From Escherichia coli (lineage in GTDB: Bacteria > Pseudomonadota > Gammaproteobacteria > Enterobacterales > Enterobacteriaceae), in NCBI RefSeq assembly GCF_050320075.1, contig NZ_CP190018.1: DNA of 64,000 bases; one strand, 5' to 3'. A program made the position numbers and the translations under genes. Below the pieces are notes generated by a model. The model ran no database searches and was not told where the DNA came from. It saw only the letters and a program-made list of their open reading frames with translations. This document shows positions 37,465-38,396 of the stretch, piece after piece; position 1 is the first letter of the stretch; every line of letters begins with the position of its first letter.

Positions 37465-37806
37465 AATTCGAAAAGCCTGCTCAACGAGCAGGCTTTTTTG
37501 CATCTGCAGCCCATGAGGATGAGAACCTCCGGGGGCAGGGAGGTTCGACTCGAGCGAAGCGAGAGAACGTTGCGCCAGCAACGGCCCGCAGGGCGAGCCA
37601 CGAAGTGGCGAGTAATCCTCTATCACCTACCAAATTCGAAAAGCCTGCTCAACGAGCAGGCTTTTTTGCATTTGTAGCCTATGAGGATGAGAACCTCCGG
37701 GGGCAGGGAGGTTCGACTCGAGCGAAGCGAGAGAACGTTGCGCCAGCAACGGCCCGCAGGGCGAGCCACGAAGTGGCGAGTAATCCTCTGGCACCGACCA
37801 AATTCG
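37446..37806 (+). repeat. 168-bp tandem repeat, about 2.1 copies, beginning within the last 19 nt of proK
   Basis: Units start at 37446, 37614 and 37782 (partial), each opening with AATCCTCT[AT/GG]CACC[G/T]ACCAAATTCG; units 1 and 2 also carry the terminator hairpin and a GC-rich hairpin module. Confidence 0.85.
37471..37499 (+). terminator. hairpin plus T-run terminator immediately after proK
   Basis: AAAAGCCTGCTCAACGAGCAGGCTTTTTT; repeated again at 37639-37667. Confidence 0.8.
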
Positions 37807-38396
37807 GCACCGCACTCATTGTGGGATACAGCGTATCCGTCTTATCCGATCTAAACGGCAACACTCCACACATTTCCCTGCCAAATTTGCGCCCCATATC
37901 TCACTATCCATTAACGGATTTGTGACAGAAACCATTGTCTTTTTTTATATTTGCTTAAATCTTTTTTTGCGTTACTTATGGCTGGCGCTGGCATTTTCCG
38001 CTGTGCGGTTTAGCGTTCATGGTATTAATCGCTCAGATATCCACCTTTTCATCAGATTTTTTTCACAAAATGCATAAAACTTAATCACCAATTGTTGCTA
38101 ATTATTAAGCTGATTGTTCTGGTTATGTTGGAGTAGCACAAATTTCTCTGCTGCAAATAGCTGTTTGAAGTTTTTTTAATCTTTGTTTGTGGATTCTCAC
38201 CGTTGGTGTAAATCCCGGTGGGCTGTATTGACGTTTTCACATTCTGTTGACAGATTGTAGGTCACGAGGGGCATTTTATGGAGGATCCGCACTGTAACAC
38301 TGATGTTAATTAGTACGGCATCCCCACCTCATAACGTTGACCCGACCGGGCAAAAAACAAAAAAGGTCAGGCAGCGACAACCCACTGCAAAGGGTT

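Follow-up and report, generated by a model that had tools for sequence, protein, structure and literature searches.

RNAs can be released by processing from the spacers and trailers of tRNA operons, and 3'ETS-leuZ is one example. In 1991, Bosl and Kersten reportedly described the release of another, the rtT RNA, from the tyrT tRNA primary transcript as a stable RNA; the account concerns tyrT only. The literature mentions a possible link between the function of RtT RNA and the response to amino-acid starvation, and to our knowledge no target or sponge function has been assigned to it. The Escherichia coli K-12 tyrT locus holds four RtT matches, of which one separates tyrT from tyrV and the other three lie distal to tyrV; the first of the distal copies is annotated rttR. 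Inside this copy lies tpr (b1229, PRTL_ECOLI), a currently annotated K-12 gene for a "protamine-like protein" whose protein cluster has nine members, from E. coli only. Our search of the literature for detection of Tpr as a protein found nothing useful. Covariation supports a conserved RtT structure, including the helix that frames a tandem GA (PMC8250186), and an "RtT sRNA", the RtT locus counted being unspecified, has served as an untranslated control with ~0% of ribosome-footprint reads (PMC13010647).

In this study, we examine a tandem repeat that follows proK in a 64,000-nucleotide stretch of E. coli DNA (contig NZ_CP190018.1), referred to here as the window. An initial annotation had reported an Arg-rich open reading frame (ORF) in each repeat unit, of 54 and 57 codons, and had suggested, while rating the coding potential as low, that they might encode a protamine-like peptide in parallel with the tyrT repeats. 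Our ORF listing agrees with the two frames, and the translation quoted for them was correct on re-translation. Of the span assigned to them, 37513-37851, the start is right and the end falls 3 nt before the end of the stop codon (37854). We conclude, with a probability of roughly 93%, that both ORFs are accidental open frames in two tandem copies of RtT, a structured non-coding repeat.

The gene order around the feature is eptB (+), a promoter-like site, proK encoding tRNA-Pro(CGG), the tandem repeat and dppA (Table 1). The candidate sigma-70 promoter 5' of proK was the sole promoter-like site that a consensus scan returned from eptB to position 37922. Tandem Repeats Finder described the repeat as a 168-bp unit present 2.1 times with 96% matches (37446-37806), and a repeat search of the window gave two 168-nt copies that are 98% identical. 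The boundaries of the unit are the 25-nt direct repeats, and each unit is composed of 18-25 nt that repeat the proK 3' end, the intrinsic terminator of proK (a hairpin of −18.2 kcal/mol plus six T) and an RtT core of ~115 nt. The terminators were identified by folding, and the negative result of a simple scan was set aside; that scan missed the proK terminator since its T-run is taken up in a stem extended by A-U pairs. The position of the terminator is kept across genera, and the variants of its stem are compensatory.

Table 1. Coordinates of features at the proK locus in the window
Feature	Position	Strand	Remarks
Putative sigma-70-like promoter, 5' of proK	37347..37375	+	TTGACG, 17-nt spacer, TAAGAT; match in consensus scan
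proK, tRNA-Pro(CGG)	37388..37464	+	
proK T-arm, CGGAGGTTCGAATCCTC	37436-37452	+	
25-nt direct repeat (tRNA 3' end plus AAATTCG), three copies	37446..37470; 37614-37638; 37782-37806	+	
Intrinsic terminator 1 of proK	37470..37499	+	Hairpin AAAAGCCTGCTC-AAC-GAGCAGGCTTTT, −18.2 kcal/mol; T-tract 37494-37499
RtT copy 1 (RF00391), full length	37499..37632	+	3' end ATCCTCTATCACCTACCA, matching the proK 3' end at 17 of 18 nt
RtT leader, GAGGATGAGAACCTCCG	37515..37531; second copy 37683-37699	+	Inverted copy of the proK T-arm, 15/17 complementary
ORF1, 54 aa	37513..37677	+	Judged non-coding
Intrinsic terminator 2	37638..37667	+	Identical repeat copy; T-tract 37662-37667
RtT copy 2 (RF00391), full length	37665..37800	+	3' end ATCCTCTGGCACCGACCA
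ORF2, 57 aa	37681..37854	+	Judged non-coding

An Rfam scan matched both units to RtT over model positions 1-130 of 130, with 101.6 bits for the first copy and 98.7 bits for the second, the gathering score being 45 bits. The first copy begins 35 nt past proK on the same strand, the second follows in tandem, and the 3' tails of the two, ATCCTCTATCACCTACCA and ATCCTCTGGCACCGACCA, repeat the 3' end of the proK tRNA, ATCCTCTATCACCGACCA, CCA included. A 100% identical locus in E. coli YZLc1-3 carries the RefSeq labels eptB, tRNA-Pro, RtT sRNA, RtT sRNA and dppA. As judged by sequence, the proK repeat units are members of the RtT family and homologs of the distal tyrT repeats, in which rttR and tpr lie. 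The element is already known, being catalogued by Rfam as the non-coding RtT and annotated by RefSeq; the initial annotation noticed the parallel with tyrT and did not recognize this structured non-coding element. A search for literature on proK together with RtT found none.

To gather homologous loci, one genome per species was scanned for the pattern of the conserved core, and an nhmmer profile search and ARAGORN were then applied. The pattern scan returned at least 120 loci, of which about three quarters were chance 16-mer matches in unrelated phyla, and only the 30 enterobacterial loci confirmed by nhmmer were used. The comparative set holds at least about 55 RtT copies from at least about 25 enterobacterial species. 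Among the matches listed, RtT copies with their upstream flank on the contig lie just 3' of tRNA-Tyr(GUA) or tRNA-Pro(CGG), the exceptions being a truncated stub past tRNA-Pro(UGG) and six copies at contig ends where no tRNA is visible. Among the same matches, the tRNA-Tyr loci that host RtT are tyrT/tyrV and, once, tyrU, and the proK-linked arrangement is seen in ~18 species. The final ~18 nt of full-length copies correspond to the 3' end of the cognate tRNA, ATCCTCTATCACCGACCA for Pro and ATCCTTCCCCCACCACCA for Tyr.

The tyrU-linked copy belongs to Intestinirhabdus alba, where it lies past tyrU within the thrU-tyrU-glyT-thrT tRNA cluster (L052, 4180-4299), and the truncated stub past tRNA-Pro(UGG) belongs to an Enterobacter MAG (L015, 6482-6556); the element is therefore not strictly limited to tyrT/V and proK. 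A variant of the 3' end, CCTCTGGCACCGACCA instead of CCTCTATCACCGACCA, occurs in the final or sole RtT copy in E. coli, Enterobacter EA-1 and Enterobacteriaceae UBA5654, and so recurs across genera (window 37789-37791; L101, copy 806-922; L075, copy 11463-11582).

To describe the structure, 46 Pro- and Tyr-linked copies from the matches listed were aligned, and the consensus fold of this alignment consists of several hairpins. Two alternative full structures had 94-96% of cells paired, as against 26-48% when the partners were slid. Six base pairs are changed on both sides, and the 3' hairpin has several independent compensatory changes (CCAC/GTGG, GCGC/GCGC, TCAC/GTGA and CAGC/GCTG). All of the length variation is confined to hairpin loops, as are the columns with the highest polymorphism. 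The two copies in the window have minimum free energies of −50.9 and −55.6 kcal/mol, which correspond to z scores of −2.8 and −3.6 relative to shuffles. The closing stems from Rfam/RNAalifold and a "hairpin plus split T-arm" pairing received equal support, and the covariation between Pro- and Tyr-type copies may amount to a single evolutionary event.

In all species compared, the leader has 2-4 mismatches to the reverse complement of the cognate tRNA T-arm, as opposed to 5-8 mismatches to the direct sequence. Past the leader, the variable loop of the tRNA and the 5' half of its T-arm are repeated in direct orientation, with 13-14 of 17 nt matching for Pro; next come a conserved ~65-nt hairpin cassette and then a 3' part that corresponds to the other half of the T-arm and the CCA-ending 3' strand of the acceptor. 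The tRNA-derived parts match the neighbouring tRNA, being Pro-type at proK and Tyr-type at tyrT and tyrU, and the cassette is common to Pro- and Tyr-type elements. Viewed without its leader, RtT resembles the 3' third of a tRNA with a cassette of ~65 nt inserted in the T-loop. In the window, the leader at 37515-37531 overlaps the first ATG of ORF1 (37513) and includes the second (37519). Since the ATG codons lie in this T-arm-derived leader, the start codon is part of a structural segment.

It is conceivable, though we think it improbable, that RtT is purpose-built to mimic the 3' part of whichever tRNA it follows, with the inverted T-arm copy clamping the two halves. If this were true, a selected, tRNA-specific role would be possible, such as that of a decoy or regulator for nucleases or for enzymes that bind the T-arm or the 3' end. 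Alternatively, simple gene conversion by the neighbouring tRNA gene could explain why these parts of RtT track the tRNA.

The ORFs were compared with chance expectation. The frame of ORF1 was listed with a TTG start (37498..37677, 59 aa), and the ATG at 37513 inside it gives 54 aa and a stop. ORF2 was listed with an ATG start, 57 aa and a stop, and its last ~17 codons enter unique flanking DNA, which is degraded REP-like sequence. When the 396-nt region was shuffled with dinucleotides preserved, 47% of the shuffles contained an ATG-started ORF of at least 54 codons; the share was 23% when one unit was shuffled and then duplicated. The Arg content of the two peptides is 18.5% and 19.3%, and composition alone predicts 12.8% (p = 0.15 and 0.11); the excess is not significant, which agrees with the early suggestion that Arg richness may follow simply from composition. 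The length of the ORFs and their share of Arg are both within the range of chance, and the proK-repeat ORFs are therefore not unusual.

The proK repeat region is stop-poor in several frames, and another plus-strand frame is free of stops over the whole 396-nt region. A TTG-started ORF of 192 aa in another plus-strand frame (37347-37925) crosses the candidate promoter, the entire tRNA gene and both RtT copies, and minus-strand ORFs of 46-95 aa also cross the proK repeats. No model in Pfam or NCBIfam matched the ORFs or Tpr, and the exact ORF peptides were not found in a collection of 15 billion proteins.

Signals for translation were sought upstream of both starts. No anti-Shine-Dalgarno pairing was found before 37513 or 37681 (dG at or above +0.9 kcal/mol), and a GAGG abuts the ATG codons at 37519 and 37687 with zero spacing; in dppA, used as a control, GGAG lies ~7 nt from the start. 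These values uphold the first impression that the ORFs have no convincing ribosome-binding site. With respect to transcription, ORF1 starts 14 nt past the T-tract of terminator 1, and its stop codon, TAG at 37675-37677, is 8 nt past the T-tract of terminator 2. ORF1 is thus bracketed by terminators, and a transcript with the complete ORF must read through both. The consensus scan found no promoter-like site between the two terminators.

Conservation of the reading frame was assessed in an alignment of 25 full proK-linked copies from ~18 enterobacterial species, among the matches listed. The stretch that separates CCTCCGGGG(G) from GAGGTTCGA in these copies differs in length by 0 to 3 nt, and the conserved ATG and the core are 26, 27, 28 or 29 nt apart. 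Because the length of the loop varies, the core falls in all three frames, with 11 copies in frame 0, seven in frame +1 and seven in frame +2, and the peptides read in the three frames, 12-88 aa long, are unrelated to one another. Indels that disrupt the frame in homologous repeats had been set beforehand as the finding that would speak against a peptide, and they are present in this alignment. Frame 0 is retained in E. coli, E. albertii and E. whittamii, and the frame is scrambled in all genera outside Escherichia among the matches listed. The start codons are also variable: the first ATG (37513) was seen in E. coli and Phytobacter only, among the matches listed, and the second is replaced by ATA in Citrobacter amalonaticus and by ACG in UBA5654.

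The substitution pattern was examined in the same copies. Variable columns at codon positions 1, 2 and 3 number 6, 12 and 12, respectively. The distinct changes among frame-0 copies are 4 synonymous and 15 nonsynonymous, where the random expectation is 26.6% synonymous; a premature stop is among the changes, as are the loss of a start codon and the deletion of 1 nt. Between E. albertii and E. coli, four changes are nonsynonymous and one is synonymous. The proK-linked copies have no excess of third-position or synonymous change, and the comparison of synonymous with nonsynonymous substitutions, which had been proposed as a check on the peptide, gave no coding signature. With a frame that is not kept, no usable Shine-Dalgarno sequence and this ratio of substitutions, the idea of a protamine-like peptide gene is not sustained, and the scepticism expressed in its low initial rating was well founded.

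Copy number was surveyed in complete E. coli genomes. The full proK RtT core is present in 2668 of 5426 genomes, with 51% having no full copy, and the number of full copies per genome ranges from 0 to 4; many strains have a truncated RtT stub only. In K-12, proK is followed by one full copy and a second that is cut within the core by REP sequences. Over the corresponding stretch of the window (37548-37860), the second RtT is full, and degraded REP-like sequence comes after it. In K-12 (L128) and many strains, with L123, L125 and L126 as the further loci compared, REP sequences interrupt the last RtT copy between …GGTTCGACTCGA and CGTAGGCCTGATAAGACGCG…. IS3-family elements, IS1397 included, lie directly past the proK terminator or RtT stub in FDAARGOS_1291 (L124) and GPEC1356 (L127), and the site 3' of the terminator or stub seems to be an insertion hot spot.

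The ORFs change in length with these rearrangements. From the same ATG codons they are 54 and 57 aa in the window and 115 and 59 aa in K-12; the frame gives 114 aa in strain 132, which has AAG for the second ATG, and 43 aa where it runs into IS1397. The C-terminus of the ORF varies with the DNA that follows, and there is therefore no conserved gene end. Elsewhere in the window, on the minus strand at 45776-46808, there are three tandem matches to the rdlD antitoxin RNA, ~484 nt apart, and three ldr/rdl toxin-antitoxin units are therefore implied; K-12 has a single ldrD/rdlD at this place.

The tyrT RtT RNA (RF00391, rttR) resembles the proK copies in its position directly 3' of a tRNA gene, its tandem arrangement, its hairpins and a 3' end that copies the tRNA. 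The proK copies differ in that they are linked to tRNA-Pro(CGG) instead of tRNA-Tyr and have tRNA-derived parts of the Pro type. Relative to tyrT RtT, their first hairpin loop is 2-5 nt longer, the GAGCG-loop and GTTGC hairpins are each 1-2 nt shorter, and the repeat unit is 168 bp compared to 178 bp. The proK units also carry an intrinsic terminator in the spacer, whereas the K-12 tyrT spacers are without one. By analogy to 3'ETS-leuZ, tRNA-processing enzymes would cut RtT out of a tRNA primary transcript as a non-coding RNA; the difference is that expression of the proK RtT would require terminator read-through.

The relation of the proK ORFs to Tpr is more limited. The second ATG of the proK ORF, in GGATGAGAA, is homologous by position to the start codon of tpr, the products of both are Arg-rich, and QRPAGR in the proK ORF and QRPEGR in Tpr are in the same frame. 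However, indels of +5 and −2 nt in the proK element shift the frame through the middle, so that the two frames agree in no more than two places, the first two codons and the surroundings of QRP[AE]GR. Where tpr has its stop codon, TGA, the proK element has TGG and, unlike tpr, the proK ORFs continue into the tRNA-end copy and the terminator. A BLASTP comparison found 6/12 identities only. Identification of the proK ORFs as Tpr was rejected on the basis of the differences in frame and stop and of this short local match. The parallel with the tyrT repeats that had been drawn at the outset thus holds for the RtT family, the homologous start and the QRP[AE]GR motif, and does not extend to a protamine-like peptide gene.

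In K-12, tpr is intact (29 aa) in one of the four tyrT RtT copies (L001, 1211-1995, minus strand), and the remaining copies stop after 5-9 codons. The loci compared include L010 and L065; the tpr start is ACG in E. albertii, and the copies of E. coli E69 read VRTFD and then a stop. These alignments suggest that Tpr is poorly conserved among RtT copies, and they call the legacy "protamine-like protein" annotation into question. A second K-12 gene, ychS (b1228; L001, 1210-1485, plus strand), is entirely antisense to the tyrT distal RtT repeats, and ychS and the minus-strand ORFs of the proK repeats are probably the same kind of artefact.

The data show family membership, tRNA linkage, structural conservation, frame non-conservation and copy-number polymorphism for proK RtT. 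We propose that the RtT core folds into several hairpins and that its closing stems would form by pairing of the inverted tRNA T-arm copy, which holds the ATG codons, with the split direct T-arm copy. The unit finishes with the tRNA's own ...ACCA 3' tail. If the rtT RNA of tyrT is a guide, the proK units would be transcribed only on read-through of the proK terminator, and their tRNA-like 3' end may let tRNA-processing nucleases trim them as a by-product RNA. Unequal recombination between the 168-bp repeats may add and remove units. In this scheme no peptide would be made, or none under selection.

The ORFs could alternatively be a real small basic peptide, similar to Tpr and restricted to Escherichia, that is translated from read-through transcripts. 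Such a peptide would fit the ATG-started frame that is intact in both copies, the homology of the second ATG to the tpr start together with the in-frame QRPAGR/QRPEGR, the retention of frame 0 in the three Escherichia species, and the fact that tpr is still an annotated K-12 gene. Yet the frame is scrambled in all other genera among the matches listed, and even where it is kept, nonsynonymous changes predominate (15 versus 4 overall, and 4 versus 1 between E. albertii and E. coli). The ORF has no usable Shine-Dalgarno sequence, lies between terminators with its stop past the second, and has a different C-terminus in every structural variant; its length and Arg content are at chance level, and 51% of E. 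coli genomes are without a full copy. The supposed relative fares no better, with tpr intact in one of four K-12 tyrT copies and lost in E. albertii and E. coli E69. We consider this peptide very unlikely.

The repeats might also derive from a mobile or integrative element that targets tRNA genes, as its scars or miniature versions; the duplicated tRNA ends would then be att-like and no role would exist at the RNA level. Copies of the tRNA 3' end bound each unit, as they would after integration into a tRNA gene, the same core adjoins two different tRNAs with flanks that match each, and the copy number of 0 to 4 and the nearby insertion of IS elements and REPs are also in keeping with mobility. 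However, no integrase or other gene is associated with the element, which is only ~130 nt, and its occurrence at the same two tRNA loci across many genera fits vertical descent. The compensatory changes that preserve the hairpins of the core are expected of a transcribed, structured RNA, and an rtT RNA from tyrT has been reported experimentally. We regard an origin as mobile-element scars as the least probable of the explanations considered, and we favor accidental open frames in a structured non-coding repeat.

The non-conservation of the frame weakens the standing of tpr and of the antisense ychS, which are legacy K-12 annotations within the tyrT RtT repeats. It also serves as a caution that GC-rich structured repeats beside tRNA genes yield long Arg-rich frames that resemble small basic proteins. 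For the family, the question raised is why a mimic of the tRNA 3' end persists behind just two tRNA species across the Enterobacteriaceae.
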